Assembly: GCA_965178125.1 (NCBI GenBank)
Contig: OZ237748.1
Location: 620,001 to 684,000, forward strand
Direction of reading: 5' to 3'
Source of the DNA: Bilabrum cf. latius
Lineage: Eukaryota
DNA: 64,000 nucleotides
Both the position numbers and the translations under genes were made by a program. The notes under the pieces are model-generated. The model was not told where the DNA came from. It worked only from the letters and a program-made list of their open reading frames with translations, and did not search any database. Below, piece by piece: positions 16,740 to 63,718 of this stretch (its first letter is position 1; each line of letters begins with the position of its first letter).

Positions 16740-18180
16740 TTAGAAGCACTTGCGGTGTACGATCGACGGCCCGCTTTCGTCGTACTCGTCTTTTGAGATC
16801 CACATGCTCTGGAAGGTGGACAGTGAGGACAGGATGGAGCCCCCGATCCACACAGAGTACTTTCTCTCCGGAGGTGCCACAACCTTGACCTTCATAGTGG
16901 GAGGTGCGAGGGCGCTCACCTCCTTGGTTAGCCGCTTTTCAATGTTGGGGAACATGGTGGTGCCACCGGACAGTACGATGTTCTGGTACATCTGCGCCCG
17001 CACATCTACATCGCACTTCATGATGGTGTCATAGAGAGTCCTGTGCACGCCGAGCAGCTCCAGGCCAGCCTGATCTGGCTAGAAGAGCATCTCCGGGCAT
17101 CGAAACCGGCACGCCCCGACCGTGATCGTGTTCCCATCCGGGAGCGTGTACTCCTACTCCAGCTCCGACGAAGTCTCTGCCTTTCTCGTTTCTTCGTCAA
17201 AGTCCTCTGCCACGTAGCACGTCTTCTCCTTGATGTCTCTGAGGATTTCCAGCTCGGCTGAGGTGGTGAAGGAATGGCCGCTCTCGGTCAGGATGCGACC
17301 TAGCTGCTCGGTCAGATCCCGACCCGCAAGATCGATCCGCTTGATGGCGTGGGGCAGAGAGTACCCTTCATAGATGGGCACGGTGTGGGACACGCCGTCG
17401 CCCGAGTCAAGCACGGCTCCAGTCGTCCGGCCCGAGGCATACAGGGACAGCACGGCCTGGATGCTGATGTACATGGCGGGCACATTGAACGTCTCAAAGA
17501 TGATCTGGGTCATCTTCTCTCTGTTGCTCTTTGGGTTCATCGGTGCTTCCGTCAGCAAGCACGGCTGCTCCTCGGGGTTTGCCCGCAGCTCGTTGTAGAA
17601 GGCCTGGTGCCAGATCTTCTCCATTCCGTCCCAATCCACCACTACACCATGATTTACGGGATGAGATAGCCTCAGCACCCCGCGCCTGGCCTGTGCCTCA
17701 TCGCCGACATAGGCGTCTTTCTCGTCCATGCCGACCATGATGCCCGGATGCTTGGGGACACCGACAACTGTGGGGAACATCGCTCGAGGGGCGTCATCTC
17801 CTGCAAAACCCGCTTTCAGCATTCCAGAACCATTGTCAATCTGTTCAGGGAATCAAATGCAAGCAGAGATATAAGCAAAGCTTCTGTGGCCCGCAGTGGC
17901 GGATCGGTCACGATGACATCTGAGGCAACTACAGGGCATGCTTGACAATTTCAGTCGCTGCAACGAGCAAACTGTAGGCAGCATATATTCAAACATGAAT
18001 CGCTTGCAGTTGGGTACTAATATTTGACATTTACAGACTTCTTTGCAGAGTTGCACTTGCGATCCAAGTCGTACGTCGCAGGCATACTACGATTCGTATC
18101 ACGTGCAATCATACTGCAGATCCATACCTTTCGATACAATTCAGCAAACTTACAACGATGGGCTGTGTTTCATCTTCCAT
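16740..18180 (-). CDS. ACT: Actin (divergent paralog); join(18180-18154, 17840-16740), 375 aa with two internal TAG codons
   Basis: [28 protein letters not shown]...YASGRTTG...[15 protein letters not shown]...IVHRKCF-TAA. Spliced length is 1128 nt = 375 codons plus stop when TAG 17154-17156 and 17079-17081 are read as sense. Confidence 0.95.
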
Positions 18181-18390
18181 TATTGAGCCGATTCGGGAGA
18201 CTAGTCGGTGACATGCACATGATGCTGATGGCAGGAAATCCGATTTTCAATTGTGACGATCTATTTATGCAGATCGATGGCTTTGATGGGGAGATAGCAC
18301 CGAACTGAAGTACAGAGCGCCATCACCAGGTCAAATGATCTCGGCAGCTGCATCGCGCAGACCGAATCGCGCAAGCCACTTGAATATCAC

Positions 18391-20720
18391 TTACATGTGC
18401 TGCAACATGGATCCAGACCCCCCAGCACTGCCCCTCCCTGCTCCACTGGAAGTGCCGTTTCCAGCTCCACCAGCACGAGTTCCAGCAGCACGAGGGCCAG
18501 GATAAGGAGGGGGGCCAAGGAAAGGCTCCGAAAGCCTCGCCAAAGGCCTCGAAAGCACCTTGCCATCGGATGGGTCATCCACATACCCATGCATCACGGC
18601 GGATAGCACCATGTCCTCGTAAGAACACAGCTGGTTCATGAAGCGCACCCCGAGGACCTCGAACGTCTCGTTCGCGTCCAACTGCGGGTATTTTCTCGCC
18701 CGCGCGGCGGCAGAGGCAGCCTCTCTGGAAATGCAGGAAGCCAGCGACAGCACCCAAGTGGATATTTGCGACGTGGACACTTTGAACCCAAACGGGTTGA
18801 ATCGCCTCGAGAGCCTGTCCTGGATGGCTGCAAACGGGATGGTGCTGTGGGAGAGGACCAGGCGCTTTCCTGGAGCTTTAGGCGCGGTCAGTGCCAGCAC
18901 GTGGGCAAGAGCAGCATCCCTCACGTCTATGGAATTCACGCCCGCATCGAATTGAGAAGAACCCTTCATGATCCGCTGCAGGAACTTCATCGACTAGAAG
19001 GAACCTTGGTAGGCAAGCACGGGCCCGGTGATTGCGCCCGGGTGCATGGTAGTGAGGGCGAAGGGGGCAGGGCCTCCGAGGGATGCATATCCGGGATCCG
19101 GATGCTTCTTCACCCCGGGCAGGGTCAGCTGTTCGTTCGCGAACGTTCAGCTGATACTGGCGTGATCCTGTGATCGACCGGCGAGGTGTCATTCCGGTTC
19201 GAGTCTACACTGGGGAAAGAGAGAGATCAGCCTCTGCGCTAGACAGGATTAGCAAAGAAATGCAGAAGCAGCCTAAGCCAGTAGCTTACTTCTCTGGCAC
19301 GGCCTGTGACGCTGAGATGCGACGCAGCTCAGGGCACAACGGCCAGTCCGCAGCTCTGCGCCGCAGCACTGAGTATTCGAACGCTTTCGATGGCACTAGT
19401 TATTTTAGAAGTTTTAGCTGAACTTTCGCTGCCAGCAAGTCTGAATTCGGTGGGCTTTGAGACGCGCCACGATGTCTTTCTGTGCGATTCCTCTTCAAGG
19501 GGACAGACTACGCTATAGCTTCCAGAGAATTCGGTCTCCTAACTCACACGTGTGTATTCACTTTAGGATTATTGCGGCTGAGTGATTTGTGTGAATTGAT
19601 TGACCCATTGGCAGGGAGTCGTTTCCCTGAGACGACGGGGCGCACCGGCCGTGCCGGCAGGGGTCGCGGGAGGCGACCCAGTGGACCAGGCGACTCCGCG
19701 GCGGGAGTCTGACGCTGGTCCTGTGCCCCGTCGCTCTCTTTCTCAGCACCATTAACTGGTGGGTCTACACATTTGTTACTGAACTCCGAGCAAGCATTAC
19801 AGGATCCTCGCGATGGACCACGCTTCCTGCTCTGCGAGCGCCTTGGACTTGGGATACACGTCCACGCCAGGACCCTTGATGTTGGTGAAATCGCCTGGGC
19901 CCCAGCGCTTCGCATTCATGTCTCCGTGCCCGTACATGATGGTCGCGGTGGAGGCAGTTAGGATCACGCGGCGCACCGTGCCCGCCTTCCGGGCAGCGAG
20001 AAGAACGGCCCTGGTGCCTTCCGCGGCAGGCTTCACCAGCCTGCAAAACAAATGCTATAATATTCAATGTATTGTACGATCAATGGATGATGCATCGCCC
20101 TTCGTTGTCCGAGCAAAAGTCGACCGGGGAATCGCCGTGCGGCATGTCGGGAAATCTCCCGCCCACGGCGAAACCACTCTCTTGAGGTTGCAACCGGTCG
20201 GCGGCTCAAAAGTGCAACCGCAGCCATTGACTGATAAGGGAGTACTTTAATGCAGCCAGTGTAACATGATTTCTGGTAAATGCTTACGTTTCTTCGTCAT
20301 CGCCCAGCAAGAACGGGCTGGCGACGTGCAGAACGAACGCGCAGCCCTCCAGGACCGTGTCCCACACTGACGGCCCATCGAGCAGGTCAGCGGCCACGAG
20401 ACCGTGTCCCACACTGACGGCCCATCGAGCAGGTCAGCGGCCACGAGCTCGAGCCGGTCCGAAGCAAACGGAAGCGCCCGAAGAAATCCCACTTTTTCTT
20501 TCTTCAAGGAGCGCGCCGTGCCTCTGACACGATACCCGGAGTGGAGCAGCGTTTGGTCGCACCAGCTCCCGAGGTAGCCCGTCGCTCCCGTCACCAGCAC
20601 CAACGGGGGAGCGCCGGCACCGCCCTATGCCGCGGCTGATGCGTCAGTGCGACTTTCACTGTTTTTCGGCTTGGGAATTTCCTCCATGCCGATCAGCGGT
20701 GAGATCGCAGAGGAGGCCAT
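18391..20720 (-). CDS. NAD-dependent epimerase/dehydratase (extended SDR, dihydroflavonol-reductase-like); possibly disrupted
   Basis: VLVTGATGYLG Rossmann motif, RRVILTAS, catalytic YPKSK, HPGAITGP, IDVRDAALAH. In-frame TAG at 20625 and 18994, ends at TAA. Carries a 47-bp tandem duplication in exon 1 and a 686-bp interruption at 19114-19799. Confidence 0.8.
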
Positions 20721-21383
20721 GGAGTTGCGATTGAATGCTCGGTTGCAGTGTCAAGGGAGACTCCGTCCTGCCGGACTGGAAACCAGATTTTCCGCCGCTT
20801 TGTCACACAATAAACCACGAGACGAGACAATCACGAGTCCAGTGCACTGGGGTACGATGACCAGAGATACACGGCATTGCCAGTGGTCCACCACCGCGGC
20901 TGCTGGGACACAGGGACAGGGACGGGTCCGATTCGCGATCCGATGCCAGTGGGGCCCAGCCACCTTCACTCTACGGGTAGCTACCTACTGCACACCCATT
21001 GAATTACCCCTTCAAAAGTATCCATGCAACGCAATACACGCAATCAAACTTAATCCATTCCTTCATTCCTTCCCTACCCCTACCCCTACCCCATCCCACG
21101 CAATCAAACTTAATCCATCCCCGTCAAACTTAATCCATTCCTTCATACCCCTCGCTTCACCTGCTCCATCCCGAAATCCACCGGTGGAGCGCCGACCGCT
21201 GCAGTAGCAGCGGAAGCAGCAGCCATTCAAAGACCAAAGCTCCGCCCGTTTCCTACTGCTCTAGCCCCTCATCCCACCCCCAAAACATTTCCCGTACTAT
21301 ATCCCCCCCCCCCGGACAATTGGCCCCGCACGCCCTCTGCCAACGCACCCTTCCACATCTTTCACGTCCACACCCCTCACCAC

Positions 21384-23688
21384 TCACCCCTCCAAGCACG
21401 GCCCGGAATCCGAGTAGTCCGGCACGCCCGGCTTCACGTGCTGCTTGTAGTTCTCCTGGAATTTGAGCGCCAGATCCTTCAGCTGAGCATCGTATGCCTC
21501 CTTATCGGCCCAGGTGGACCGCGGGTCAAGCACCTCGCCGTCCACGCCTTCCACCTGCTGGGGAACAGCGAAACCGAACACGGGCATGGGCTTGAAGGAA
21601 CCTTCCTCGATAGAGCCGTTGAGCACGGCGTCCACGCAGGCCCTCGTCACATCGATGCTCATCCGCTTGCCCACACCGTAGCCACCCCCCGACCAACCGG
21701 TGTTGATGAGATACGCCCGCGTCCCGTGCTCCCTCATCTTTTCCTCGAGCAGCTTCGCGTACTCCGTCGCGTGCAGGGGCATGAACGCAGCCCCGAAGCA
21801 GTGCGAGAAGGTTGCAACCGGCTCCTTGATGCCCCTCTCAGTTCCCGCCACCTTGGCCGTGTATCCCGACAGGAAGTGGTATTGGGCCTCCCCCGCGGTG
21901 AGCTTGCTGACGGGGGGGAGCACGCCAGTGGCGTCGCATGTGAGGAACACGATCACGCTGGGGTGGTCCCCTTTCGATTCCGGGTCCACGTTCCGGATGT
22001 GGTGCAGGGGGTAGGAGACCCTCCCGTTCTGGGTCTTGCTCCCGTCGAAGTAGTCGGGGCTCGCGTCGTCCTCGTTGATCTTGATGTTCTCCAGGAGTGC
22101 CCCAGGCGCCTTGATGGCGTTGTAGATGTCGGGCTCGGCCTTCGGGTCCAGGTTGAGCGTCTTGGCATAGCAGCCCCCCTCCAGGTTCCAGATCCCGTGC
22201 TCGTCCCAGCCGTGCTCGTCATCGCCGATGAGGAGGCGCTTGGGGTCCGCCGAGAGGGTGGTCTTGCCCGTACCGGAGAGGCCGAAGAACAGGGCCGTGT
22301 TCCCCGATTCCGGGTCCTTGTTGGCCGAGCAGTGCATGGTGAGGACCCCATTGAGGGGGCAGCGAAGGTTCATCAGGGAGAAGGCCCCCTTCTTCATCTC
22401 CCCCCCGTAGCTTGTTCCCCCAATCACGGCCAGCCCCTCGTCCGCGTGCGCCGCCACGAACACCTCCGAGTTGAGGCCGTGGGATTTCCATTCCGGGTCG
22501 CTGGTCCGGCAGGAGTTCAGGATCATCAGGTCGGGCTCGGCTCCCGCCAGCTCCCGCGCGGCGCCCTCCGACTCCGGGTTGCGGAACATGTTGGTGACGA
22601 AGTGGTGCTGCCAGGCGAGCTCCGTCACCACCCGCACGTGGATGCGGGAGGCGTCAGACGCCCCCACAAAACCGTCGAACACGTACAGATCCTCCGCTTT
22701 GGACAGGTGGTTCGCAGAGATAGCGTGCAGTTTGTCGAAATTCTCCCTGCTGATGGGCTGGTTGATGTCCCCCCAGTCGATTTGCTCGGCGGAGGGGCCC
22801 TCGTTCACCCAGAACCTGCGTGTTTGGTGTGACAAGTGTGATTGGTGTGACGAGTGCGGAAGGAGGCGTGGCTCGCCGCGTGCAAAATTGCGCGGGGGAG
22901 GGCTGTCCTGGCCGGTGGTGGCATCGCAGGGTGGGAGCGCCGCGGCATGGGGGGCAGCAGCAGCGCGACACCAACCACCGACGGTGCCACGTTGAAACCA
23001 ACAAGGGATGCGCAGGCTGTGTGATACCATACGATGCACTGCATAACGATGTGATACATCACATGAGCAAATCCAGTGCCAACTCGAGGTGGTATCACGC
23101 GGCTCCATCGGTCGATTTCAACTCGAAGCAGCTGCTCACCTGTCTTTGGGGCTGCGGCCGCAGTACGGCGCTGCGAGCACGAGAAAGAACACGTTTTTGA
23201 AACAAGTGTGCGACTACTGAACCATGCTCGAGCATCGCTAGCATGTCGTGCGCGCGGCCTCGGCTTCGAGATCTACTTGCCGCCGAGCGGCCCGGGGATT
23301 CGGCACCGAATCGTCTCGGAATTCTCGCTTCGTCAAGACATGTCGCGCATCTTGCAGCAGGCCTTGCGGGCGCATGGTAACCCTCACCTGTATCAATGAC
23401 AAGAGTTCCATTGTCGATCGGCACAGCCTCCTTGCGCGCGAGCTCGTGCTCGTTCACTTCAGCCGCGGACAGGTTGTGGTACACTTTGGCAGACGGAGCG
23501 TTCACTCCCCACCGGGTCAGCCCCAGCGACTGCACCAGCGACTCATCTGCCTATCCAGACGAACCCATCGTGGATGAGAAAGAGCGTACGCCCCGCAGTT
23601 GGAACGCTGTTTTAAATCCAGCGCCACGGGACCCGACGGTAGCAACCACGCAGCGACGGCTCGCAGAACGCAGCGATTGGCGCAACAT
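21384..23688 (-). CDS. PCK: Phosphoenolpyruvate carboxykinase (ATP) with a putative mitochondrial presequence; join(23688-23388, 23170-23140, 22815-21384)
   Basis: GRSPKDR, YGGEMKK, MHCSAN, FFGLSGTGKTTLS, LIGDDEHGW, EGGCYAK motifs; splice phases are consistent. Arg/Ser-rich acid-free N-terminus, TAG 23551-23553 in frame, TGA stop. Confidence 0.95.
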
Positions 23689-24161: not shown

Positions 24162-25595
24162 ATGGCGGCCGCACCCCAACCTGCAGCAACAGCAGCCAGC
24201 GACAAGGCAAAGCCAGAGGCAGCTCCGGGAAAGACTCCCGAGGCCGCGCCGCAACCAGCCACTTCTACGATCACGTCTGCCTCTAGCACGTCGGCGCCGG
24301 GCAAGGCATCGGATGCGCCAGCCGCCAAGCCGCAAGCTGACCAAGCGGCAGCAGCAGCAGCAAGCGCGGAGGCTCCGACCGCTTCCGGCTCCGGCTCCGG
24401 GTCCAAGCCGACCCCTTCGAGACCCGCCCCCTCCACCGCCTACCAAACCCCCCTGGCCAGCGGCTGGACCTTCTGGTGGGACAGAAAGCTCGGGCGGGCG
24501 GAGTGGCAGCGCATGAAATCGGCCAACCCGGAACTGTCCTACAGGGAACTAGTCAGGCCGCTGGCCACCGTGCGGACCGTCGGGGCCTTCTGGAACGCCT
24601 ACCTGCACATGAAACGGCCCTCGGAGGTGGCCAAAGACGTGAATCTTTATTTTTTCAGGGAGGGCTCCACCCCACTGTGGGAGTCGTACCGGGAGGGCGG
24701 GTGCTGGATCCTAAAGCTGAGGCGGGAGCCTAAACCGGAATTCGAGGGGGGGAAGGGGCCCAGCTCCGGGTCATCTTCGTCTTCGGGCGGGGGCCGCCGC
24801 GGCGGGGGCGGTGGCGGTCGTGGAGGCGGCGCAGGTGACGGGGGTGCTCAGCTGTCAGCCGAGGCGCGGGCCGGTGCCATCAGCGCCGCCTGGCAGGATT
24901 TATTGCTGGCAGCTGCGGGGGAACAGTTCCAGTCCTGGGACGTGGTGGGGGTGTCTCTCAGCGCCAGAGCGGGGGAGGTGATGCTGTCTGTGTGGAGCAG
25001 GCGAAGCGCAGTGGATGCAGTGGTGAGGAACAGGCTGGGGGAGGGGCTCCGGCGGGTCCTCGGGTTGGAGAAACACTCGGTGCTGGCGTACAAGGACCAC
25101 GTGAGGTCTCTTCACGACAGGTCGGGCCGGGCAGGGGCCCAACAGTTCGTAGTGACCGACAAGGCGGCCCAGGCGAGGGCCGCCACGGCTGCCGCCAACG
25201 CGCTGGCGAGGCAGAGTGGGCTGGGATTCGGATACGGGTTTGGAGGGGAGGCGGCTGCGATCGCCAGGGCGGGGATGGAGCGGGCGAAGCGGGAGCAGGC
25301 GGCGGAGGCGGCCCGGGCGCAGGGGGGAGACGCGGCGGCGCGGGCGGCGGCGGATAGCGCGGACCCGCTGCATGCGGCTGGGCTCGCGGGGCTTGTGGCT
25401 GCGGAACAGCCCGCGGGCGCCGCGCACGCTGGCCACCACAGGGGCGGGCAGGGGGCCCACCACAGGGGCGGCAATGTTCACTCGTCACACTCATGGAAGC
25501 CGCACGGTTCCGGGGGCAAGGGCAAGGGGAAATCGCCGGGTGCGGGAGCGGGCGCAGCGCACGCCAGCGGCAAGCCGAAGCCATCAGGGAAATGA
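24162..25595 (+). CDS. Translation initiation factor eIF4E-family protein with low-complexity extensions
   Basis: PLASGWTFWWD, TVGAFWNAY, YFFREGSTPLWE, GGCW, VVGVSLS...LSVW and YKDH match the eIF4E core pattern; ends TGA TAA. Confidence 0.9.
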   Translation: MAAAPQPAATAASDKAKPEAAPGKTPEAAPQPATSTITSASSTSAPGKASDAPAAKPQADQAAAAAASAEAPTASGSGSGSKPTPSRPAPSTAYQTPLASGWTFWWDRKLGRAEWQRMKSANPELSYRELVRPLATVRTVGAFWNAYLHMKRPSEVAKDVNLYFFREGSTPLWESYREGGCWILKLRREPKPEFEGGKGPSSGSSSSSGGGRRGGGGGGRGGGAGDGGAQLSAEARAGAISAAWQDLLLAAAGEQFQSWDVVGVSLSARAGEVMLSVWSRRSAVDAVVRNRLGEGLRRVLGLEKHSVLAYKDHVRSLHDRSGRAGAQQFVVTDKAAQARAATAAANALARQSGLGFGYGFGGEAAAIARAGMERAKREQAAEAARAQGGDAAARAAADSADPLHAAGLAGLVAAEQPAGAAHAGHHRGGQGAHHRGGNVHSSHSWKPHGSGGKGKGKSPGAGAGAAHASGKPKPSGK

Positions 25596-25946: not shown

Positions 25947-26087
25947 CGACCTCGGAAGCCCACCTGGCTGCACTGCCTGTCACACCAGCACAGGCACCGG
26001 CGATTCCCCTCGGAGGGAAAGTCCTCTTGGCTCCTCCAGCCCTCTTTGCTCCTGCGCCCGCTTGCAAGCCGGATGATGACCCCTACG

Positions 26088-28810
26088 TCAGAGCCGCTGC
26101 TACTCCGCCTCTTCGAGCCCCTCCAGCACCCCTTGTTCCCCGCCGAGTCCCTTGCCCTAGGGCCCCTCCCCCACCTCCTTCTCTTTCTCTTTCTCTTTCT
26201 CCTTCTCTTTCTCCTTCTCCTTCTCCTTCGACTGCGAGCTCTTGCCCGCCTGAATCTTGCCCTCTCTTGCCCCTGCCTCTGCCCCGCCCAGGCAACCGTG
26301 CGCCTTCTAGGCCACCGACTCGGGCATCACCTTCATCGCCAGACACGCCCCGATCAGCAAGAAAAACAGAACATTCGCCCAGAACACAAAGGCGCCAAGC
26401 GACTCGCGAAGACGCTCCTGACCCCCCAGGTCATCAAAGGCCGCCTGCTGCTCCGCCAGCACCGACTCGAACGAGGAAGGCACCATCAGGACCGGAGTCA
26501 GTGTGACGAGCAACACAACCGCGGACACCTGCTCCAGCCGGTTCTCCAAGACGGTCTTGAGAGGCTGACACAGAGCGATGGCCCACAGGTTTGCCACAAC
26601 CACCAGAACCGCCACCGTGGTCTGCATGGATGCCCCCACCGGCCTGAGAGCCGCCCCCATCACGGCCAGCAGCCCCTTCCGCAGCATCGCCACGCTCTCC
26701 CAGAACGGCGCATGGGCCGCATAGCTGGACGTCATGTAGCTCATCTGGTACCTGCTGCGGGGGGACCGCATCCTCCGCTTGCACACGGCCAGCCCCAGTC
26801 CAAGGGGTACCCCGAGAGAGAACAGCACCAGGGTCAACAGACCCACGGTGGCACGCAGACCCACAGTATAGTCGCACCGCACGTCAAGGTCTGCAGCCAG
26901 CCGCGACTGGAACGCCCGCCCCGTCCATCCCCCTCCGTCGCGTCCGTGGGGCTTGTCCCTGGCCCCACGGGCTGGCACACGAGCAGCTGCATGGCCTGCG
27001 TGGTCACAAAGATCGCCGTGGACGACAGGATCACGCGGTCCTTGAGACTCGGCCAGTAGGCTCCATCGGTACCACCGATCGGGGGCGCAGATGCAGACAA
27101 CTCGGGCATCTTGGTGCCAGCCGATCCACCAACAACTGCCGCAGCGCCTATCACCGGGCTGGCAGCACCCTCGGGCTTGTCGCTCCTGCCCGCCAGGTGC
27201 CTCAGCGGATTGGAGGACGCGAATGACGCCCCTCGCATCGCGGATGGACCCGTCGTGGCCACACGTCCTGCACCTGCCCCGCCGCCGATGCTGGTGCTCC
27301 TCTGGATGGTCACGGGGGCCGTCGTCTTCACATTCCTCTCCTTGTCCTCCTCCTCCCCCTTGCTTCCCGCTCCCAACTAGCCCGACAGAGCCCCCGCCAC
27401 GCCATCCTGCTGCACCTCCTGCCCCGCCACCACCCTAAGTACCAACTCGGGCAGCCCACAGCACGCCAGCGCCGCGAAACCCACCAGCAGCAGCGGCAAG
27501 ATTGCAGCCATGACCACTCGCAGCAACACGGGGAAATCCTCCAGCTCGATCCCGTCCATCGGATCCGCCTCTCGATCCACGTTCGAGAAGGCGATGCAGT
27601 CCGGTGACGCCAGATCCACGCCAGCCGAAGTACCCGTGTCCGACACGGCAAACAGATCAAGGAAACCCTTGGGCCAGTCCGCCACTACGGTGCTCGAGAT
27701 AGACACAACCTGCACGTGGCCAAGCACGATCCTCACGATGCCCAGGGGGGACCCTTTCTCCTCCTCCTTCACCTCCCCATCGCCTGTCCCCGACTAGTCA
27801 ACAACCTCCGTCGCACTCCTTCCCATGGCGTCCCGATGCGCCAGCAGCAGTAGAGCGCCCAGCCCCAGCACAATCAGCAGCCCCCCGCCGATCACCTGCA
27901 GCGCCGACAGCCCAGGCCGACACACCGTACAGCTCCCATCCACGCTCAGACTGTATCGCGCCGCGCACTGCGCGCACAGCACCCCTGCATGGTTGTCCCT
28001 GCACCCCTCCACCTGGCTCACGTTCACCGTCAGCAGTTGTCCCTGCACCCCTCCACCTGGCTCACGTTGACCGTCAGCAGCCCGTCCTCAGGCCCGCACT
28101 CGGGCAGCGTCAGCTCGATCCACCTGTCGACCAGTCCTTGGTTTGCGCTGCCCGTGGCCCTCTGCAGCTCGTTGCGGCCCAGCTGCTCGTCCACTTCCAG
28201 GATCTCGTCACACCGCAGCTCGTACACAGACACGTCCTGCCTCTACCCACACCCGAATCCGCCGCACTGCAGGGGATTCGGGCATGGCGCGAATGGCAGC
28301 GGGTCCCCGCTCACGTTGTGCAGGTACCTCTTGGAGGGGCTAGCCGCCGCACTGTGCGACCTGCCCCGTCCCATTACCCGATGCTACGCCCAGCCTTACG
28401 AGCCACGGGACAAGGCCGGCACTGCTGCTGCTCCAGCCCCCCTTGCTGGTCCAGGTACTCGCTTGCCTGGCACGAGTCCCGGATGGCAGCCGACGTCATC
28501 GTCCACAATGCCTTGTCAGCGTCCCCACCCTCAGGCACTCCGGCCACGGCAACAGACACAGGACCCTCCGCCCAGTCCAGCCGGGGCAGCTGCACCTCTG
28601 CCTGGAAGACCGACACGGGGAAGTTTCCACCAATGCCGCGCAGAGAAGCGAGCGCTTCCCGAATCTGCTCCTCCTCCGTGGCATTCATGGGCCCCCCTCC
28701 GGCTGTTGTGGTGCTGCTGGTATTGGCCACAAAAGAGCCGTTGGGCTGCAGCAGATGCAGGAGGTACAGCTGTCAAGGGATATCGCGGATGCCGTGCATC
28801 CGATCACCTG
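26088..28810 (-). pseudogene. Cys-rich ectodomain, multi-pass membrane protein gene with several apparent frameshifts (pseudogene or assembly indels)
   Basis: CRPCP, CPNPLQCGG, GCRDNHAGVLCAQCAARYSLSVDGSCTVC, then hydrophobic helices (IVRIVLGHVQVVS, SRLAADLDVRC, PFWESVAMLRKGLL, ENRLEQVS). TAGs at 27794, 27377 and 26307 join the ORFs; frame changes near 28390, 28035 and 26950; TGA at 26088. Confidence 0.65.
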
Positions 28811-29016
28811 CTGCAGCACGGGACAGTGCACCGCGACCTCATCCTTAACCTTACCAACGTGATGTGGGGTGGAACTCCAAGGGGGGCCTCGGGCCATGGG
28901 GTTGGCTGGTACTAACTGAGGATAAGCTGGGCTGGAATTCGAAGGTGCTGGTCCAAAAGTAGCTACCCGTAGAATAATTCAAAAACGAAATAAGAATCGG
29001 GATGATAGACTACTCG

Positions 29017-36912: not shown

Positions 36913-36914
36913 TA

Positions 36915-37571: not shown

Positions 37572-37596
37572 AAACAAAAAAACAAAAAAGGCAACA

Positions 37597-46262: not shown

Positions 46263-46297
<35 letters not shown>

Positions 46298-52571: not shown

Positions 52572-53792
52572 TCACAGCTTCCCAGCCCCAGCCCCAGCCC
52601 CAGAAGCCCTAGAGTCACAAGAAACGGATCCGCCAGAGACCCCAGCCCCGCACGCCCCCCGAATGTGTTCCCCCACGGCCTCCAGCACGGGTCCCCTGTG
52701 CTCCGGGTCCAGGTGCGCGTGGTGCCAGCCGGGCACCCGCACCACCCGCACCCCAGTGCCGTGCACCCTCATTGCCTCGAGCCGCTTCTCCGCTGCCCCC
52801 TCCGGGAAGGGGATTCCCTCCTCTGCCCTCACCAGCAGCACTCCTCCCCTGGGCCTCAACTCTCGCAAGAAGGCCAGCATCTGCTCCTCGCAGAGATACA
52901 TGTCAGACGGGTCCTTCAGCCGCTGGTCGTGCCGAAACAGCACCTTACCTCCCTGTCCCGCCCCGCCACTCGCACCAACACCCTCGCCCTCGCCCTCGTC
53001 CGGCAGCAGAGCCCTAGTCCCCCGGCCCACCAGCGCCATGGCACCTTCCAGAGACAGCCGCTGGGGGCCGGGCAGCCTCCCCGCCGTGCTGGCCCTGTAC
53101 TCCCCCGCTGCGAGCAGAGACTCGAAGGGGGCCGTGCTGCGGCTCCCACCTGCACCTGCGCCTGCGCCTGCGCCTGCCTTGTCGGCCACGGTCTTGAACG
53201 CCTTCCACAGCGCCCCCGGCAGCGCGGCAGAAGGCCTGGTCAATAGGCCCATCGAGTCGAGCAGCACCATCGACTGCAGCCTCGTGCCAAGAGCACCCGC
53301 CGCCAAACACGCCACGCCTCCCCCCAGCGAGTGCCCCACAAGGTGAAATCCCTCCGATTTGGCGTCGTCCTCCTCTTTACTTGCATCTCCACCCTTCCCG
53401 CCCGCCCCCTTGGCCTTGACCCCGCTGCCGGCGGCATCCGCAGTCCCGTCGCCCGGCACCCACCCCAGGGAATGCGCCGCGCCTAGCGCGCACTGCGCGT
53501 ACGTTGTTGCGAGATAAATACCGTCTCTGAGGTGCGGCGAGCGGCCGTGTCCGGGCAAGTCGATCGCAACCACATCGCAGCCGGCCGCTGCAAGGGAGTC
53601 TGCAAGGGGGCCAAATGTCGCCGCATTGTCCATCCAACCGTGGAGCATGAGCACCCTTGGCGGCTGACCTGCACGTTGCCCGGCGCCTTCGGCCAAAGGT
53701 TTTCCCGGGCGCCACCGCAAGGCCTGAAGCGTCGTATTCGGACGGGAAATGGGGATCGAAAGCTCCTTGCCGCCGTGCGTGGGTACCGCCAT
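52572..53792 (-). CDS. Alpha/beta hydrolase (serine hydrolase-like)
   Basis: LMLHGWMDNAATF, AIDLPGHGRS, nucleophile motif GHSLGG, C-terminal GWHHAHLD; single exon, TGA stop. Confidence 0.92.
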   Translation of the reverse strand: MAVPTHGGKELSIPISRPNTTLQALRWRPGKPLAEGAGQRAGQPPRVLMLHGWMDNAATFGPLADSLAAAGCDVVAIDLPGHGRSPHLRDGIYLATTYAQCALGAAHSLGWVPGDGTADAAGSGVKAKGAGGKGGDASKEEDDAKSEGFHLVGHSLGGGVACLAAGALGTRLQSMVLLDSMGLLTRPSAALPGALWKAFKTVADKAGAGAGAGAGGSRSTAPFESLLAAGEYRASTAGRLPGPQRLSLEGAMALVGRGTRALLPDEGEGEGVGASGGAGQGGKVLFRHDQRLKDPSDMYLCEEQMLAFLRELRPRGGVLLVRAEEGIPFPEGAAEKRLEAMRVHGTGVRVVRVPGWHHAHLDPEHRGPVLEAVGEHIRGACGAGVSGGSVSCDSRASGAGAGAGKL

Positions 53793-54019
53793 ACTCGCCC
53801 TGTAAGAGTTGCTACGCTACGCTCGTTGCAGAACAAACTTGTGAGCAAACTGTGCGGAATGTCTCAGCATGCACCCGTCATCGCGCCACCGGAGGATCTG
53901 TTGTTGCGATCTCATCATCACACCTCTGCAGACCATTTTTGAAAGATGAAGCAGCATACGCCAGGACTTTCGGACCCTGCCAGCTTGCAGAATCTAGCTG
54001 TTGTACCTGCTTTGGAAGC

Positions 54020-56284
54020 ATGTCCATGGATTTACAGGACGAAGATGGGTCGTCGGAGGCCTCTCGATCTCTACTTGGCGTTGCATTCAACTAGGATTCC
54101 GGTGAGAGCTCGTGCGAGCATGCTTGATTGCTTGGATACCGCCTCTTTGCCACCCCTTGCCCCAATGCCGGCGGAAGCGGAGCAGCCGGGGCAGGATGGT
54201 TGCCTTTTGTAAAGTATCGAGCATGCAAGTGCGCCAGGTAGCTGCTGGGATGTCGCCGTGATGGCGCAGCCCCACGGAGCTGACAGGTCCGTGTACGCGC
54301 AATAATTTCGCGCGAGCTCACACTTGAATCGGATAGAACGGCGCGTGCATACACCTGTCTGCTCCGTGGGGAGCATGAGAGCTCGGTGCGTTGCCCAGGT
54401 ACCTTCGGGTACCTGCGCGTGCTTCCAATGCCGGTCGCTTCCACGAGGGGTGTCGCGAGTGCGCCTTGCACCGAGGCTTGACTCGGGGGTTGACATGCGC
54501 GCGTGATGTGTGCCATAAGCTGCCCACAGTTGTCCTGTCCTCGCTCCCTCCGCTCCCATCCGTGCACCGCCGATCCGCACCTCGCCCCCTTTCCTTTCCT
54601 TTCCTGGCTCTCGCTCTCTCTTCTCGTAGGCTGCTTCACCTGCGGCACCACCGGGGGATTTAGGATCTATAGGACAGACCCATTCAAGGAATTGTTTCGA
54701 AAAGGTGAGCCTTGCGAGGGTGGCCCCGAGATGATACCCTCTCCCTCCCCCTTTCTGGCTGGATTGGGTAGGGGGTCGAGCTGTTTGCCGTTCATGGATC
54801 GCCGCCACCACCCCCATCCCATCGCCCCGATTCGCACACCACCTCCCATAGACCGATCGCTGTGCATCGCAGCATTCACGAGCGGCGGTATCGCCAGGGT
54901 AGAGATGCTGTTCAGGTGCAACATCCTCGCCCTCGTGGGCGGGGGGGAGCACCCGAGGTTCCCGCCCACCAAGGTCATGATCTGGGACGATCACCAGTCC
55001 AGGTGCATCGGGGAGCTCGCCTTTCGATCGGCTGTGAGGAACGTTCGCTTGCGCAGGGACCGCGTGGTGGTGGCATTGGACCGGAAGGTGTACGTGCACG
55101 CGTTCGCCGACTTGGAGATGGAGACGCACATCGAGACGTGCCCCAACCCGCTGGGGCTGCTGGCGGTGTGTCCCAAGGCGGACGCCTGCGTGATTGCCTG
55201 CCCCTCCACCGAGACCGGCAAGGTACGGGTGGAGCTGCTGCACAAGGGCCAGACCGTGCTGGTGCAGGCGCACGAGACCGCCATCGCCCAGCTGGCGCTG
55301 TCCCTCAGCGGCACCCGGCTGGCCACTGCCAGCGAGAAGGGCACCCTCATCCGCATCTGGGACACGGCGTCGGGGAAGATGCTGCAGGAGCTGCGCAGGG
55401 GCAGCGAGCGGGCGACCATCCACTGCCTGTCCTTCAACCACGACGCGAGTATGCTGGCCTGCACCTCGGACAGAGGCACCTGCCACGTGTTCCGGGTCAA
55501 GAAGGAGGCCCAGGACCCGGGGGGCGTCGAGGTGGCCAGGGCCGGCATCGCGGGGGTGCTGGCTGCCCCCGGGGGGGAGGGCATGCGGAAGGGGGGGGAT
55601 GCGGGGGACACTACAGGCGGGGCGGCGGCGGGGGGCGCGGAGGCTGGGGCGGGGGAGGGCACTGATGCCGGGAAGGATGGGAGCGGGGGCGGGGGCGGGA
55701 GCGGGGCGGCGGGTGCGTCTCCCGGTGCTGCAGGTGCGGGTGCAGGGGGTGATGGTGCGAGTGCTAGTGCGGGTAAGAATGGAGGCAAGGGGGCCGGCGC
55801 GGGAGGCAAAGGCAAGGGCAAGGAGAAGGGCAACTCCACCAGTGGATTGGGTTTCTTGGGGGGTATGCTGCCCTCCTATTTCAGCTCCGAGTGGAGCTTT
55901 GCTCAGTTTCGAGTGCCCGCAGGCCGCAGCATCTGCGCGTTTGGCGCTGACACGGGCACCCTGGTGGTGGTGACGGCGGACGGGAGCTACTTCAAGGCCA
56001 AGTTCGACCCCAGCGGGGGGTCTGCCTCCAAGGAGATGGACCAGCTCGAGGTGGCGCCCCTGCTGACGGGGCCGGGGCCGGGGCCGGGGGCGGGGCCGGG
56101 GCCGGGGGCGGGCCCAGACCCCTCGGCTGCTGCATCGAGCGGGTCCAAGGGCACGGAGGCTGAGGCTGAGCCCAAGGAGGCGGGGGCGGGGGTGGGCGAT
56201 GGAGAAGGAGAAGGAGAAAGAGAAGGGTCCGGGGGCAGGGGTGCCACGGAGGGGGGGGCCGGAGGTGGTGAGCCGGGGTCGTGA
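54020..56284 (+). CDS. ATG18: ATG18/WIPI (PROPPIN) WD40 protein, WIPI3/4-like; join(54020-54101, 54630-54704, 54873-56284)
   Basis: VAFN[TAG]DSGCF, EMLFRCNILALVGGG, KVMIWDD, LATASEKGTLIRIWD, phosphoinositide-binding LRRG, PSYFSSEWSFAQF; splice phases are consistent. Confidence 0.93.
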
Positions 56285-56576
56285 GGGAAAGGGAGGGGAG
56301 GGGGGTGATGAACTGGTGTTCGAACATAGACAGAGTCCTCTATGGGTTGTCTTGCTCGTTGCCGTGGATCCAGCCGTGCCAGGCCCTCCCCTCCCCTTGA
56401 GGTAGGGCCAGGGGAGGGGACCTGCTTCCCGGCCCTCGAGGAGGCAGTCTTTTCGTCTCCCCCTCCCGCCAGGTTCACAGCGAGGGTGCAGCGAACTCTC
56501 ATGGTTTGATCATCATCCTCGCTTCGCCGCAGAATGCAGAATCAGCCGCGACTGCACCTTCAGTGCGGTGCACCCA

Positions 56577-59500
56577 TGATTCGTACACACCGTCGTGCCA
56601 CTGATCCCGCGATCGGGCCGCTAAACATGCGAGCAGGAAGCTTTCGCCGATTGCAACAATCATTTCGATAGGTTGGCTCTGATGTATTTAGGACCGCACG
56701 GGTACTCCAGCCTCGCGGGCAGCCGTTCTCCCAATTTCCTCGCTCCCCTGCTGCGCGGTGCACTTAGTGCAGCACATAGCGAGATTCGTTCGCCGTGAGA
56801 CTGCTACGATTGCAAACTACTTGCTGTTACAAGCTTGCTGGTTGGCTAATTTTATGTACGATCTGGCCGCAAACCCCAGCGCTGCCGCTTCCTCCCCACC
56901 GCAGCGCCTGAGCTCAAAGGTTGCTGCCGATCCTTTCGATACCGGTCGCTCTATTAGCCTGCGCTCGATTGCTACATGTGCTTCTGTGCGCAAATCAACG
57001 GAATCGTAGGCCGCCAAAGATGGCTCGGGCGAGGCGGCTACCCGTGCAGGTGCCGAGAAAGTCGCGTCGGCCGACAAGAAGCCCGAGGCAGTGGCGAAGG
57101 AATCATACGAGGTAGGGGAGGTTCCTGAGCCCCCTCCTGACCCGAGTCGGCATTCGCTCCCTCTCGGTCTGCGGACAGACCTGCCAAGCGTCCGCGAATT
57201 GGCCCAGCAGGCCGGCACTCTCGCGGTGACGGCGGGCCGCTTCCTTGGCTACGAGCTGCCCGTGTCCATCGGGGAGAAGGTGCTGGAGCTGGCCAAGATT
57301 GCGGTGACCAGTGAGGATCAGTATGCGGTGCATTGCGGTGCACGTCCCGCAGTCCCCCACGTCGCCTCGTACCCCCCACCCTGCTGCTGCTCCATCCCTC
57401 CGTCCCTCGCTGCGTCCTTGTCTGCACCCCGCATGATGAACCCGCCCCATGCCATTCCTTCTGTCCTTCCTTTCTTTTTTGTTGTTTCCCTTGCAGATCC
57501 CCGGGAGCTCGGTCCGATCTTCTCCCGCATGTGGTCCCACCTGAGGGCCGAGCTGGAGCACTACTACCTCGGCTTCCGGCTCTTCTTCCTCGAGTGCAGG
57601 ACGGCCACCTCACTCGTCACACGCATGGCCCAGGGATACGAGCTCAGCCGCAGGGAGCGCAAGCAGCTGGTACGCACCACGGGGGACGTGTTCCGCATGG
57701 TCCCCTTCGTGATTTTCATCGTGGTTCCGTTCATGGAGTTCCTGCTCCCAGTGGTGGTCTCATACTTCCCGGGCATGCTTCCATCGACCTTCCAGAGCGA
57801 CCTGCAGCAGGAGGAGAGGAGGAAGCGCATGCTGAAATACAGGCTGGAGCTGGCAAGGTACATGCAGGACACGGCCAGGGACGTGGGCAGGCAGATCGCG
57901 CACAGGGCGGAGGGAGAGACGAGGGAGACGGCGCTGGAGCTGATCCGGCTGGTGAACCGGGCCCGGCAGGGTGAGATCCTGGAGAGCTCTGACCTGATGA
58001 GGGTGGCCAAACTCTTCAAGGACGAGATCACGCTGGACAACGCCCCACGCGGGCAGCTGGTGGCCATGTCGCATTTCTTCCGGCTGAACGTGTTCCTGCC
58101 CGATCCATTGCTGAGGCTGCAACTGAGGAGCGCCGTGCGAGACCTGAAGAACGACGACCAGCGGTTGGCCTGGGACGTGAGACGCACACCTGCCTGCCCC
58201 TCGCCCGCTTCTTTACCTGCCCCTCGCCCGCTTCTTTGCCTGCCCACCCCGTGCTCCAACTTGCCACCTACACCCGCATCCACACCTACACCCGCATGCA
58301 CACCTGCACCCGCATCCACACCTACACCCGCATCCACACCTACACCTACCCTCCCACTCGCAGGGCCTCGAGAACCTGACCAAGCACGAGCTGCAGGAGG
58401 CTTGCAACACGCGTGGCATGCGATCCACGGGCCTCACCGTGGAGGGGTATCGCCAGCAGATGCAGCAGTGGTGAGTTGAGCTAGCAGCTCTGTTGCACTG
58501 GCACTGACACTGACACTGACACTGACAGTACGTAGACATCACCCCCACCACCGGCTTCACACCCCCCACCACTGTACCAACGGCACCCCTCTCCTTTCCC
58601 TCCCCACCGCAGGCTGGACCTCAGCATCAACAAGGAGGTCCCCGCCTCTCTGCTGATCCTGTCCAGGGCGTTCACCATCACGGCGGTGAGGGGAGACGCG
58701 GCCAGGGCCCTGCAGGACCAGATCGCGGACATTGACCAGGGGGCACTCTCGGAGGCCGTGCTGGACCTCTCAGGGGATGGGGAGAAGGGGAAGGACGCGG
58801 CGGGGGCGCAGTCGGAGCCCAAGCCAGTCCCTGCTGCGCCTGGGCTGGGACTGGGGCCCGAGCCAGGGGCAGGGGCAGGGAGTGCTGCAGCTGCATCTCA
58901 GTCAGGGACACCGCCAGCAGCCGGTGCGGGCAAGAAGGAGGTATAGAAAGACACGGAGATGGAGGGCGCCGCAGTGCAGCAGCAAGAGCAGTCTACTTTT
59001 ACTGCCAGCAGTCCCAGTCCTAGTGCCAGTCCCCCGTTGGCCATGGACGGGTCAGGGGAGGCCCCATCGCCCGTGGATGGCGTGGCAGCCGCCGCACAGG
59101 CGATCGAGGACAGCGCCAGGGACCTCCCCGAGCTGGAGAGGGCGGCGCGGGGGGCCATGGAGGAGGCCTAGGCGAGACTGGGGGAGGAGGGCGGGCATGG
59201 GAGCGAGGGCAAGCCGCTTCCATCTTCAACGACTTAGCGGGAGAGCACCGCCAGCAGCAGCAGCAAGAGCAGGAGCAACACGAGTAAGAGCAAGGCTGCT
59301 GCCCCCGCGCCGACCGACAGCGACTCCTCAGACGACGACGAGGCAGAGGACGCCGAGGCCCGGGCTGAGCTGCGGCGGGCTCGTCTGGCGGCGATCGAGC
59401 AGCAGAACGAGCTGATCGAGCTCGAGAGGGAGGTGCGTGCGGAGCTTGCGGGGGCAGAGGAGGCCACGGAGGCGGCTCTGGCCTTCGTGGATGAGGCGCG

Positions 59501-60725
59501 GCAGATCCTGACCGACGTGGAGGACGAGGCGGTGGAGCTGGGAGGGGCAGGAGCCGGAGTGGTTGGGGGAGCTGTGGAGGGGGGCAGTGGCAGTGGCAGC
59601 GGGTCTGACGGAGGCTCGAGCGGGGTCAGTCGTCGGGCGCGCGTGGCCGAGGCGATGCAGAGGTACAAGCAGGCGCGGGAATCCTTCCAGCGGGCGGCTG
59701 ACTTGCAGGAACAGGCGCAGGCGAGGCTGAGGCAGCACCATCGGGAGCAGCCCGTGGGCAAGGGCAAGGGCAAGGGCAAGGACGGGGATGGAGAAGGAGA
59801 AGGAGAAGGAGAAGGAGAAGAGGGGCCCGGTGAGCTGAGTGCGGCAGAAGCACAGGCCCTGGAGCTGCTGGTGCACGAGTCGGCCGTGGTGCGTGAGAGA
59901 GGGGTGCTGCACCGCTTGCGCGCGGCCAAGATGCAGATGGAGGCGATGGACATGATCGCGAGGGGCAGGATTGGGGTACAAGCCGGGGAGGGGGAGGAGG
60001 GTGGGGAGTTGAGTGGAGGACTACTGGTGGAGGGGGAGGGGAGTGAAGAGCAGTCGGAGGACAACCAAGGGGTATAGAAAGGGGCGGTGGGCTCCCTGGG
60101 GGACAGCAATGAGGGGGGTTCCCCCGGGGTTGGCGGGGTATCTGCCCCCGCGAAGGGGGCAGCGGAAGAAGCCCAAGCAAAAGCCAAATCCAAATCTCCG
60201 GCCCCGGCCCCGGCCCCGGCCCAGGACCCGGTGCGTGCCTATGTGGAGGACGCGGGGGCTGCTCGTGTCAAGTCGCTGCTGGACGGGCAGCTGGACCGTC
60301 TGCTGACCAACTGCGAGCAGGAGCTGGAGAGCGCAGACGAGGCCATTGGCAGCAAGCTGAAGCGCCTGGATCTAGACAGGGACGGCATCATCTCGGCTGG
60401 TGAGCTGCACTCAGCGGTGAAGCAGATCCTGGCCGGCAGGGACAGCGACGAGGCGGCGGCCAAGATCGTGGGGCAGCTGGACCGGGACATGGACGGGCTC
60501 ATCTCGGTGGAGGACGTGCGGCGGTTTGCGAGGCTGCGGTCTGAGGCTGAGGCGGCCCTGCAGGAGTGGGTGGGCGGGTCTGACGAGGAGGAAGACGGAG
60601 GGCCCAGGGAGGTGGCTGAGATGGAGGCGGAGGCAGAGTCCGCGGGGGCGGGCGCGGGCGCGGGAGGAAAGGGAGAGGGAGAAGATGCGACTGGTGAGGG
60701 GAGGGACAAAGGTGAGGGGCGCTGA
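56577..60725 (+). CDS. LETM1: LETM1/Mdm38 mitochondrial inner-membrane protein with C-terminal EF-hands; about 5 exons, start approximate
   Basis: HYYLGFRL, LSRRERKQLVRTTGDVFRMVPFVIFIVVPFMEFLLPV...FPGMLPSTF, FKDEITLDN, ELQEACNTRGM, WLDLS. The EF-hands DLDRDGIISAGEL and DRDMDGLISVEDV are reached in frame through TAG 58944, 59169, 59235 and 60075. Confidence 0.9.
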
Positions 60726-61065
60726 CTGACTCACAAATTTGACTGCCTGTACGATCGTATGACGATTGGCGACAGCCTACTGGTGGGATGCAGGATGGGA
60801 TGGCGGGAACGCGGAAGGAGTCGGGGCAATTCTGTCAAGACACTCGTGTGAGGTGCATGGCAGGATATATGGATTTGCACAGCTTGGACTAAATCGAATC
60901 AACGGATTCACCGTGCGTACATTTGTATTCAAGCAGATCGATCGAACGAGTGAAAAGCCTACAGTGTAGTGCATTTTAAAATGTACAGTGCTGATATCGG
61001 GTTCGTCCGGTAAATGCAGAATCCGCGTGACCAGCTGCAAGAAAACCTCTTCTATCGTTTGAACC

Positions 61066-63718
61066 ATGGCAATGCAGGTCGGCGTCCCTGGCGTAGGCGT
61101 ACAAGGTACTGCTGGTGCCCCAAGCAGCGGTGCTGGTGGCCAAGCAAGCGTACCTGGCGTGTCTGCTCCGCAAGGCCAGCAGCGCAAACCAGTTTCCCTG
61201 TACGTTGCCAACCTGGCACCAGAGACCAACCAGTCCGATCTAGGCAAGCTGTTTGCTTCCATTGGGCCAATTCAAAGCGCTCGCGTCATTTATGATGCTG
61301 TCGACTCAAGTGAGTGGTGCATACCGGCGCATAGCATGCTGCCGGCTTGTTGGCCAATCTTCTCTCAATGCGATTCCAACTTCTGGCACATCTGGAATGC
61401 GGCCTTCCAGCGCGTCAATAGCCTTACAATAGTGTTGAATTTCATTTCGCGCTTTGTTGGGCTGGCGGGTTTTCAATTGGCGTAGCGAAAGCGCATTCCC
61501 GAGCCGAAATGATTTTCTATCGTGGATGATGCTTTCAGTCACGCGAGAACTGATGGCTGAATCGAGACCGATGGCTCCATTTGTGAATTCTTACTCAGTG
61601 TGTGTAGCGGGCCGCAGTGCGCTGTTTGCACCATTTGCCTGCCGCGCTGGTCGAACCACGTGCGCTACATCCGTGTTCCCATCGAACGTTTTGCCACTTC
61701 AACGCAACGCAGACAAGTCGCTCGGGTACGGGTACGTCAACTTTGTAGAGCACGCAGACGCCAAGAGCGCACTGCGCGATTTCAGCGGGCAGATGCTGAA
61801 CGGGAATCCCCTCCGCGTGGCCTGGGTGCAGCGGGACCCCACCCTGCGCCGGAGCGGGCGCGGCAACGTCTTCATCAAGGGCATCGCCCCCAAGTGGAAC
61901 ACCGCGGATCTGTTCGAGTTCGTGGACACTCAGCTGGTGGCCGAGGACGGCAAGACCCCGATTCCCGACTCGATCATGTCGTGCCGCATCGCGCTCAACG
62001 TGGACGGGTCCTCCAAGGGCTACGGGTACGTGCAGTTCGACTCGATGGAGCACGCCCAGCGGGCCATCGACCAGTTCAACGGGCTTACCGTGGATGGGCA
62101 CAAGCTGGAGCTGGAGCACTACAAGCGCAGGGACCAGCGCCGCAAGGACGGGGCCAACCAGTGGACCAACGTGATCGTCTTCGGGCTGCCCCCCCAGTGG
62201 GGAGACCAGGCGCTGGCGGCCATGGCCAAGCAGTCTGGCTTCGATGCGCAGAGCTGCAAGGTGGCGGTGGACTCGGAGGGCAAGAGCAGGGGGTTTGGGT
62301 ACGTCAACCTGCGCTCGAACGGGGATGCGGTTGCATTCACGAGCAAGGTGACGGGGAGCATCTGGAGCGAGGACGTGGATCTCGTCAAGGCGGCGCCCGC
62401 CCCTCAGGAAGAGGGCAAGGTGGCGGGGGGAGATGGCGAGAAGGCGGGGCCGGGGGGCGCAGGGGAGGACGAGGGCGAGAGCAAGGACGGGGAGGGCAAG
62501 GAGGCAGCTGCTGCCCGCCCTCTGCTGGGCTCGCAGGAGTCCAGGAAGAGGGCGGGGGCTGCCGATGACGGGTCGGGGTACGTGCTGGACGCGCGGCGGC
62601 ACATGACCCGCGCCGAGATCGGCCGGTAGAAGGAGGAGCAGAGGCGCAAGCTGCGGGCCTCCCGTGCCAAGAGCAACTCGAACCTGTTCGTGCGTCAGCT
62701 GGACGAGGAGGTGACGGAGGATGACCTGCGGGCCGAATTCGAGGACTGCGGGCGCATCACGAGCGTCAAGGTGGCCCGGGACCAGGAGACGGGGGTGTCC
62801 CGCGGGTTTGGCTTCGTGGCTTTCTCCAAGGACGAGGAGGCGCAGGAGGCGCTGCGCAAGGACCGTACCCTGCTGCGTGGCAAGCCCATCAAGGTGGTGC
62901 TGCACGTGCCCAGGGACCAGCGGGCCAGGCAGCTGGCGGAGAAGAAGCGCAAGCAGGCGCAGAGGCAGGGCATGATGGCGGCTCAGGGCATGGGCATGGG
63001 CGGCGGGCCCGGCATGATGGGCGGCCCCATGGGCATGATGGGGGTGATGGGCATGCAGATACAGCCCATGATCATGCAGCGCGCCGCCCAGCTGCTCATG
63101 CAGCTCTCGCAGGAGGCGCAGAGGCAGAAGGGGGCTGCCCTGTCCATGCAGGAGCAGCAGCAGCTCATGCAGCGGGCCTTCATGGGCGCCCAGCAGGAGG
63201 TCATGCAGCAGATGTACCGCCAGCAGATGGCCATGATGCAGCAGATGCAGCAGCAGCAGCAGCAGCAGGGGGGGCAGCAGGGGGGGAGGGCCGCGCAGCC
63301 GCCGCAGGTGGCACAGGCCCAGCCCCAGGCACAGGCCCAGGCCCAGGCCGGCCAGCAGGCAGGAGCGGGTGCAGGCGCGGCCCAGCAGGCCCCCCCTGCA
63401 GTGTCCGCCTCGCAGCCCTCGTAGGCCGCCGCCTTCCTCGAGAGGATCAGGCACATGGCGCCCAACGAGCAGAAGCAGGCCATCGGCACCGAGCTCTACT
63501 CGCTGCTGCAGCGGCTCCCGTACGAGCGCCCAGCGATCAACGGGGTGGATGATCTGGAGGGGGCCATCACGGGCATGCTGCTCAATGGGTACCAGGGCGG
63601 AGACCCGGGGGCGCTCGTGGGGCTGCTGGACGAGCCAGCGACGCTGCAGAACCAGGCCAAGGAAGCTGTCTCTATGCTGGTTTCTTCTCGCGGGCTGCAG
63701 GGTGCACCTGCCCAGTGA
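61066..63718 (+). CDS. PABP: Cytoplasmic poly(A)-binding protein (4 RRM + MLLE); join(61066-61309, 61713-63718)
   Basis: SLYVANL, SLGYGYVNF, QRDPTLRRSGRGNVFIK, SKGYGYVQF, SRGFGYVNL, NLFVRQL, SRGFGFVAF, Gln/Met-rich linker, QKQAIGTELY...ITGMLL. TAG 62627 and 63422 are in frame; TGA stop. Confidence 0.95.

Follow-up and report, generated by a model that had tools for sequence, protein, structure and literature searches.

Nuclear genetic codes in which the meaning of UAG is split from that of UAA are known from a handful of lineages only (PMC11687900), and in the nuclear reassignments of UAG alone that are treated in PMC11687900 and PMC5304391 the codon has passed to glutamine, leucine, serine or glutamate, most often to glutamine. 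A further candidate is described here, in a 64-kb window of contig OZ237748.1 (assembly GCA_965178125.1, positions 620,001 to 684,000; the window is the whole stretch of DNA analysed, and all coordinates below count from its first letter). In this window TAG stands within the reading frames of actin, ATG18, LETM1, PABP and other genes. The reading that we consider probable is that UAG is a translated codon, most likely for glutamine, in a GC-rich nuclear genome in which UAA and UGA are stops.

Among the described systems, the code of Iotanema spirale (Fornicata, UAG = Gln) is like the present one in that only UAG is found in frame and UAA and UGA stay terminators; its predicted decoder is a tRNA whose anticodon is CUA, and its eRF1 carries a T32G change (PMC5304391). 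Iotanema is an anaerobic flagellate, and the case for its code was built on hundreds of alignments (PMC5304391), whereas the present locus is GC-rich, has a LETM1 gene with a mitochondrial-type presequence, and offers three conserved columns, one of which disagrees. The ciliates Hartmannula sinica, Trochilia petrani and Protocruzia tuzeti (UAG = Gln) use the same translation table 15, with UAG no terminator, but UAA ends 93.5-100% of their C-terminal alignments (PMC11687900), compared to TGA in six of the eight gene ends seen here. The G+C content, satellites and long introns of the window also appear unlike a ciliate somatic genome. In the uncultured rhizarian exLh, UAG alone is reassigned, as here, but to leucine, and exLh came to light solely as a passenger within the transcriptome of another organism (PMC5304391); transcripts of the present locus occur in runs labelled with other organisms. 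An exLh-type code with UAG as leucine was ruled out, as not one of the three conserved sites suits leucine, which lies 3.9 nats below the best residue. Finally, Amoebophrya sp. ex Karlodinium veneficum has in-frame stops in about half of its genes, essential ones included, for which suppressor tRNAs have been proposed; in that organism all three stops occur in frame within an AT-rich genome (PMC12005148, PMC6394959), while only TAG is in frame here and the DNA is GC-rich. It was ruled out as a match on those two grounds (PMC12005148).

The window DNA is eukaryotic nuclear, with a G+C content of 45-65%, mostly 52-65%. Nine genes are recognisable in it and seven of them have an in-frame TAG, the other two being the coding sequences of eIF4E and an alpha/beta hydrolase. 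All 17 TAG coordinates reported in a first-pass annotation of this DNA proved to be TAG, on the right strand and in frame with the named gene. Three more TAGs, at 56669, 56765 and 56777 in the presequence of LETM1, were found beyond that list. Six coding sequences were validated, with 3,753 codons in all; their frame 0 contains 13 TAG, 0 TAA and 0 TGA, and in their frames 1 and 2 there are 19 TAG, 7 TAA and 121 TGA. The chance of all 13 in-frame stop triplets being TAG, assuming random tolerance, is 0.129^13 = 2.8e-12. With PEPCK exon 1 added, the count becomes 14 TAG in 3,827 codons. A comparison of open reading frame (ORF) lengths under different sets of stops was also tried and set aside as uninformative in GC-rich DNA.

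The ends of eight genes could be read, and all eight are TGA or TAA: TGA in PEPCK, eIF4E, the hydrolase, ATG18, LETM1 and PABP, and TAA in actin and the epimerase. The previous observation that no traced gene ends in TAG thus holds for all eight. Actin had been said to stop at its conserved KCF with TAA, and the sequence there is KCF-TAA-V-TGA. TGA is clearly a stop, as it was found 0 times in frame against 121 times off-frame. The features of a code in which both UAA and UAG (UAR) are glutamine, of the translation table 6 type, were not found, there being no in-frame TAA and two genes, actin and the epimerase, that end in TAA.

Actin (16740..18180, minus strand) consists of an exon 1 encoding MEDETQPIV, an intron beginning GTAAGT, and exon 2 at 16740-17840. 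Its in-frame TAGs are at 17154-17156 (residue 233 of the ORF) and 17079-17081 (residue 258). The identity of the gene is given by a phmmer search of PDB (E=3e-191), with 366 residues collinear and gap-free; since the alignment to solved actins runs without a gap over both TAGs, neither TAG is intronic. ATP-dependent PEPCK (21384..23685, minus strand; PEPCK_ATP E=7e-182) has an exon 1 with a presequence and a TAG at 23551-23553, a main exon at 21384-22832, and TGA as its terminator. A mini-exon within 23117-23365 on the same strand, flanked by the presequence exon and the main exon, encodes the conserved phosphate-binding YCGRSPKD. The NAD-dependent epimerase/reductase-like gene (18391..20750, minus strand) has several exons, TAGs at 20625 and 18994, and the terminator TAA. 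The first of these TAGs follows the start Met and precedes the GATGYLG Rossmann motif, and no further Met comes after it. In PEPCK, the epimerase and LETM1 alike no Met was found from the TAG to the conserved domain, ie a later start does not rescue these genes.

On the plus strand, ATG18/WIPI (a PROPPIN; 54020..56284) has three exons, which the spliced contigs place at 54020-54100, 54629-54702 and 54871-56284, a TAG at 54092 within the motif FN[TAG]D, and the terminator TGA. LETM1 (56627..60725, plus strand), identified by LETM1_RBD (E=6e-51) and a pair of EF-hands, has exon ends and following starts at 56794/56905, 57310/57497, 58176/58364 and 58469/58612 and also terminates at TGA. It has eight in-frame TAGs, at 56669, 56765, 56777, 57007, 58944, 59169, 59235 and 60075. 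PABP (61061..63862, plus strand) has an intron at 61310-61712, TAGs at 62627 and 63422, a TGA stop at 63716 and a poly(A) site at 63862; it was identified by three matches to RRM_1 plus MLLE, the first RRM being partly in exon 1, outside the scanned part. The order of elements in PABP is RRM, TAG, RRM, TAG, MLLE, with TAG 62627 between RRM3 and RRM4 and TAG 63422 before MLLE, and in LETM1 it is LETM1_RBD, four TAGs, EF-hand pair. Judged from these domain matches, the canonical architecture of both proteins requires that TAG be translated.

Contigs of four public runs were placed on positions 52000-63900, which span ATG18, LETM1 and PABP. Three of the runs, X5, X6 and X7, belong to two studies and carry organism labels unlike that of the DNA run. 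Contigs from these three skip the GT..AG introns 54100>54629, 54702>54871, 56794>56905, 58176>58364, 58469>58612 and 61309>61713, and one of them has a poly(A) end at 63862. Contig pieces with 0 differing letters span the TAGs at 56669, 56765, 56777, 57007, 58944, 59169, 59235, 62627 and 63422, and a contig joined across 54100 has 94 letters of ATG18 exon 1, with 54092 among them. TAG 60075 lies outside all the RNA-type contig pieces listed, and no difference between contig and DNA is listed at any TAG in 52000-63900. Once spliced, ATG18, LETM1 and PABP each translate as a single frame from Met to TGA that is broken by TAG only. A check of the TAGs in reads and RNA had been called for at the outset, and its outcome is that spliced contigs retain TAG in all three genes. 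Since the TAG is unchanged in spliced contigs of two other studies, editing, splicing and assembly error are excluded for ATG18, LETM1 and PABP. On the codon counts, the gene ends, the domain architecture and the spliced transcripts that contain TAG, we regard it as nearly certain that UAG is translated at this locus.

The observations that weigh against the reading of UAG as glutamine with UAA and UGA as stops concern termination, the reach of the transcripts, the decoding apparatus and the amino acid. With respect to termination, TAA is scarce even off-frame (seven occurrences), and its absence in frame therefore says little, and eight gene ends leave room for occasional termination at UAG. 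The interval covered by the contigs excludes the TAGs of actin, PEPCK, the epimerase and the ankyrin gene; the types of the runs were guessed ('RNA?'), and the DNA run is possibly the assembly's own sample. Neither a gene for a tRNA with anticodon CUA nor one for eRF1 is within the 64-kb window. The residues opposite the TAGs are dealt with further below.

The first of these points allows a code that is ambiguous or wider than supposed, with UAG both sense and stop according to context, or with UAA also read at low frequency. CAA and CAG occur in the ratio 21:167 in the validated coding sequences, and if TAA shared the meaning of TAG that scaling predicts about 1.8 TAA in frame per 14 TAG, so that the zero observed is weak evidence; the gene-end sample is likewise small (n = 8), and such a code exists in Amoebophrya sp. 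ex K. veneficum, another alveolate (PMC12005148). Because TAA is rare throughout these GC-rich coding sequences, the case for UAA as a stop is built mainly on the ends of actin and the epimerase. Those ends are nevertheless hard to reconcile with a wider code, as actin stops with TAA at a universally conserved KCF, with TGA two codons on, and the epimerase also ends in TAA. The contrast between frames for TGA, and the finding that TAG terminates none of the eight genes, point the same way, and the AT-rich genome with three stops in frame that accompanies such a code in Amoebophrya (PMC12005148) has no counterpart here. A context-dependent or wider code is thus considered unlikely.

The identity of the amino acid was examined at the three strongly conserved columns that bear a TAG, namely ATG18 residue 24 and actin residues 233 and 258. 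In ATG18, the FN[TAG]D column has glutamine in 107 of the 107 homologues that span the site (120 were fetched) and lysine in none. At actin residue 258, in LF[TAG]P, glutamine is found in 102-103 of 120 homologues, lysine in 4 and aspartate in 6. Aspartate stands at this position in the three closest actins (79% identity), the closest metagenome actins (17 of 80 loci translated) have lysine, asparagine or glutamine, with LFKP in 7 of the 17 inspected, and the column among the closest actins overall is aspartate, lysine, asparagine, arginine or alanine. The first-pass annotation had placed TAG at glutamine positions in both the actin motif RCPExLFQP and the ATG18 motif FNQD; the latter stands without exception, while the former holds in most of the 120 homologues and varies among the closest actins.

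The remaining column disagrees. At actin residue 233, in LE[TAG]EY, lysine is present in 117 of 120 homologues and glutamine in none, and the three closest actins have the same flank, ETSSELE[K]. A Codetta-style sum of hmmbuild emissions over the three sites is a tie, with lysine at 0.0 and glutamine at -0.28 nats; arginine and glutamate are 1.6 nats lower. Both PABP sites and the epimerase site lie in variable columns and are uninformative on the residue. PABP site 305, for example, has E 25, R 18, Q 17 and K 16 among 148 homologues, and site 570 is mixed. The earlier match of ankyrin AA[TAG]NGH to AAQNGH did not survive, as the residue there is variously S, N, Q and R among the sister repeats and the match is consequently not diagnostic. 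Local amino-acid composition around TAG was also tried as a test of the residue and was dropped when the controls, CAA and AAA, failed to recover glutamine and lysine; one gene had also entered the count twice.

These columns raise the question of whether TAG is sense but specifies lysine, or some other residue, in place of glutamine. Beyond residue 233 itself, lysine draws on its occurrence at residue 258 in 4 of 120 actins and in the metagenome LFKP motifs, on the lysine that yeast Pab1 has opposite PABP TAG 62627, and on the near-equality of the emission sums. Set against this are the invariant glutamine of ATG18, the lack of preference at PABP site 305, and the first 60 residues of LETM1, in which three TAGs and 5 Gln codons occur with no AAG or AAA, although this last is a post hoc hint. 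The two proteins also differ in how far they depart from their relatives: ATG18 differs at 1 of 43 columns conserved at 100%, and actin at 19 of 217 columns conserved at >=97%, including the neighbouring E236T and E248C. For this reason a change from lysine to glutamine in actin is more plausible than one from glutamine to lysine in ATG18. On this comparison of sequences it would be several-fold likelier, a rough estimate of the ratio being 3 to 1 without the second actin site and about 30 to 1 with it. Residues other than lysine and glutamine fit none of the three conserved sites, and as far as PMC11687900 and PMC5304391 set out the nuclear codes, UAG to lysine is not described among them. 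Glutamine is accordingly favoured on substitution rates and precedent. The original claim that UAG encodes glutamine therefore stands in its first part, that TAG is a sense codon, and is softened in its second: glutamine is a good probability, with a TAG at a conserved lysine (17154) as the dissenting site. We put lysine itself at a low probability and any further residue lower still, and the alternative as a whole, lysine or some other residue in place of glutamine, we consider unlikely.

The actin gene (16743-17840, minus strand) is unusually divergent in its own right. Of 248 columns that are >=95% conserved in 120 homologues, 26 differ, and the best identity is 79%.

If UAG is read as glutamine here, the decoder would be a tRNA whose anticodon is CUA, which would pair with UAG and not UAA. 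According to the account in PMC5304391, no anticodon but this one can read UAG and pass over UAA. Such a tRNA would probably derive from tRNA-Gln(CUG) by one anticodon change, and eRF1 would be expected to have weakened recognition of UAG.

Rfam found no rRNA in the window, and the affinity of the source was approached through its protein-coding genes. The best match of PEPCK is an EukProt transcript at 65%, followed by oomycetes at 60-62%. Actin has its best match at 79%, to ENA/JGI proteins with the same intron position and motifs, and the actins of 80 loci from JGI metagenomes are <=75% identical; 17 of these were translated and contained no in-frame stop. The conserved part of ATG18 has best matches of 63-66%. 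In the cluster that holds the best ATG18 match, short members were considered as possible truncations at TAG and rejected, as they are exons running into introns. The PABP relative is a 275-residue ENA fragment from an environmental assembly, 62% identical, which stops 12 residues short of the TAG. No close relative was found in the databases searched, the best being actin at 79%, PEPCK at 65% and the PABP fragment at 62%. Named neighbours are spread over stramenopiles, dinoflagellates and rhizarians: the best of these matches are with oomycetes, brown algae and labyrinthulids as well as with dinoflagellates and rhizarians, and neither ciliates nor metamonads are among them.

A source within a lineage already reading UAG as glutamine (phyllopharyngean ciliates, Protocruzia or Iotanema) would leave the code real and its origin not new. 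The want of rRNA in the window, and nearest relatives that are environmental sequences, give this some room. It is improbable in view of the 52-65% G+C over 64 kb, the kilobase satellites, the introns of 110-530 bp, the predicted mitochondrial-type presequences of LETM1 and PEPCK, and the named matches just listed. Such G+C, kilobase satellites and mitochondrial-type presequences appear a poor fit for the macronuclei of ciliates and for a fornicate that lives anaerobically. In open-access papers and preprints, searched without their supplements, no account was found of a GC-rich eukaryote outside the ciliates that reads UAG as glutamine. The code type, with UAG alone as sense, is already known and rare, and this is probably a new occurrence of it. 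That the decoding of UAG alone as sense arose independently here, in a GC-rich genome of a lineage without a sequenced close relative, we rate at about an even chance.

The alternative that fares worst, that the TAGs are untranslated and reflect sequencing or assembly error, editing of the RNA, cryptic introns or the decay of genes through nonsense mutations, could appeal to the confinement of the contig check to 52000-63900 and to a DNA run that may be the source of the assembly itself, but is very improbable given the same TAGs after splicing in contigs from two further studies (one contig ending in a poly(A) tail), the single type of stop triplet in frame (P = 2.8e-12), homology that is collinear through the TAGs of actin and ATG18, and the presence of TAG in essential single-copy genes and in seven of the nine genes overall.

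Each further code in which UAG alone is translated is a natural experiment on the discrimination between UAG and UAA by eRF1 and on the capture of a codon by a suppressor tRNA. AT pressure is the usual explanation for the capture of UAR codons, and a GC-rich case challenges the idea that reassignment needs an AT-biased genome in which the codon first turns rare. Were the lysine signal at actin residue 233 the true one, UAG as lysine would be without precedent. In practical terms, gene callers using the standard code would truncate or split seven of the nine genes here, including actin, PABP, PEPCK and LETM1, and likely most genes genome-wide. Annotation, proteomics databases and phylogenomic use of the assembly all depend on recognition of the code.

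Spliced transcripts identical to the 54000-63900 locus occur in runs of two studies that are filed under other organism labels. Because they occur under other names, the source may be an overlooked associate that lives with or in other organisms; equally, the labels may differ for one organism.

The ankyrin-repeat gene (3565..15487, minus strand) is multi-exon, and its in-frame TAGs, at 3565, 12065, 12867 and 14331, are all at variable repeat positions. Those at 3565 and 12065 occupy an identical position, G[TAG]TPAE, in paralogous segments of the gene. From this shared position it follows that the ankyrin TAG is older than the internal duplication or has arisen twice.

The two recognisable genes without TAG are eIF4E (24162..25595, plus strand; IF4E family), which ends with TGA and then TAA, and the alpha/beta hydrolase (52572..53820, minus strand), whose coding sequence runs from MAVPTHGG to a TGA terminator. 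The hydrolase and ATG18 are arranged head to head, with approximately 200 bp (53820-54020) between their start codons, a layout which suggests a shared bidirectional promoter. Large ORFs with coding-like third-position G+C and several in-frame TAGs are also present at 41871-47197 on the minus strand and at 26000-31000; one of their TAGs sits in a poly-Glu run, EE[TAG]EEEEEEE. A Pfam search of these large ORFs (26-31 kb and 41.9-47.2 kb) gave no family.

A 19-bp satellite forms large arrays of 33-120 copies, in both orientations, at 33442-34795, 36933-37569, 39859-41424 and 47902-50165, and a 133-bp satellite of about 17 copies, with 95% matches, occupies 37602-39864. The satellite arrays produce long spurious ORFs coding for PGPEWPPWPRMASLAQNGL-like repeats. 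The flanks at 41100-41746 and 49841-50487 contain ORFs equal in length and composition, and this comparison, made from the ORF table and not from an alignment, suggests a duplication. The sole RNA gene of the window is a tRNA-Gly(CCC) at 50511-50581 on the minus strand, which adjoins the end of a satellite array.

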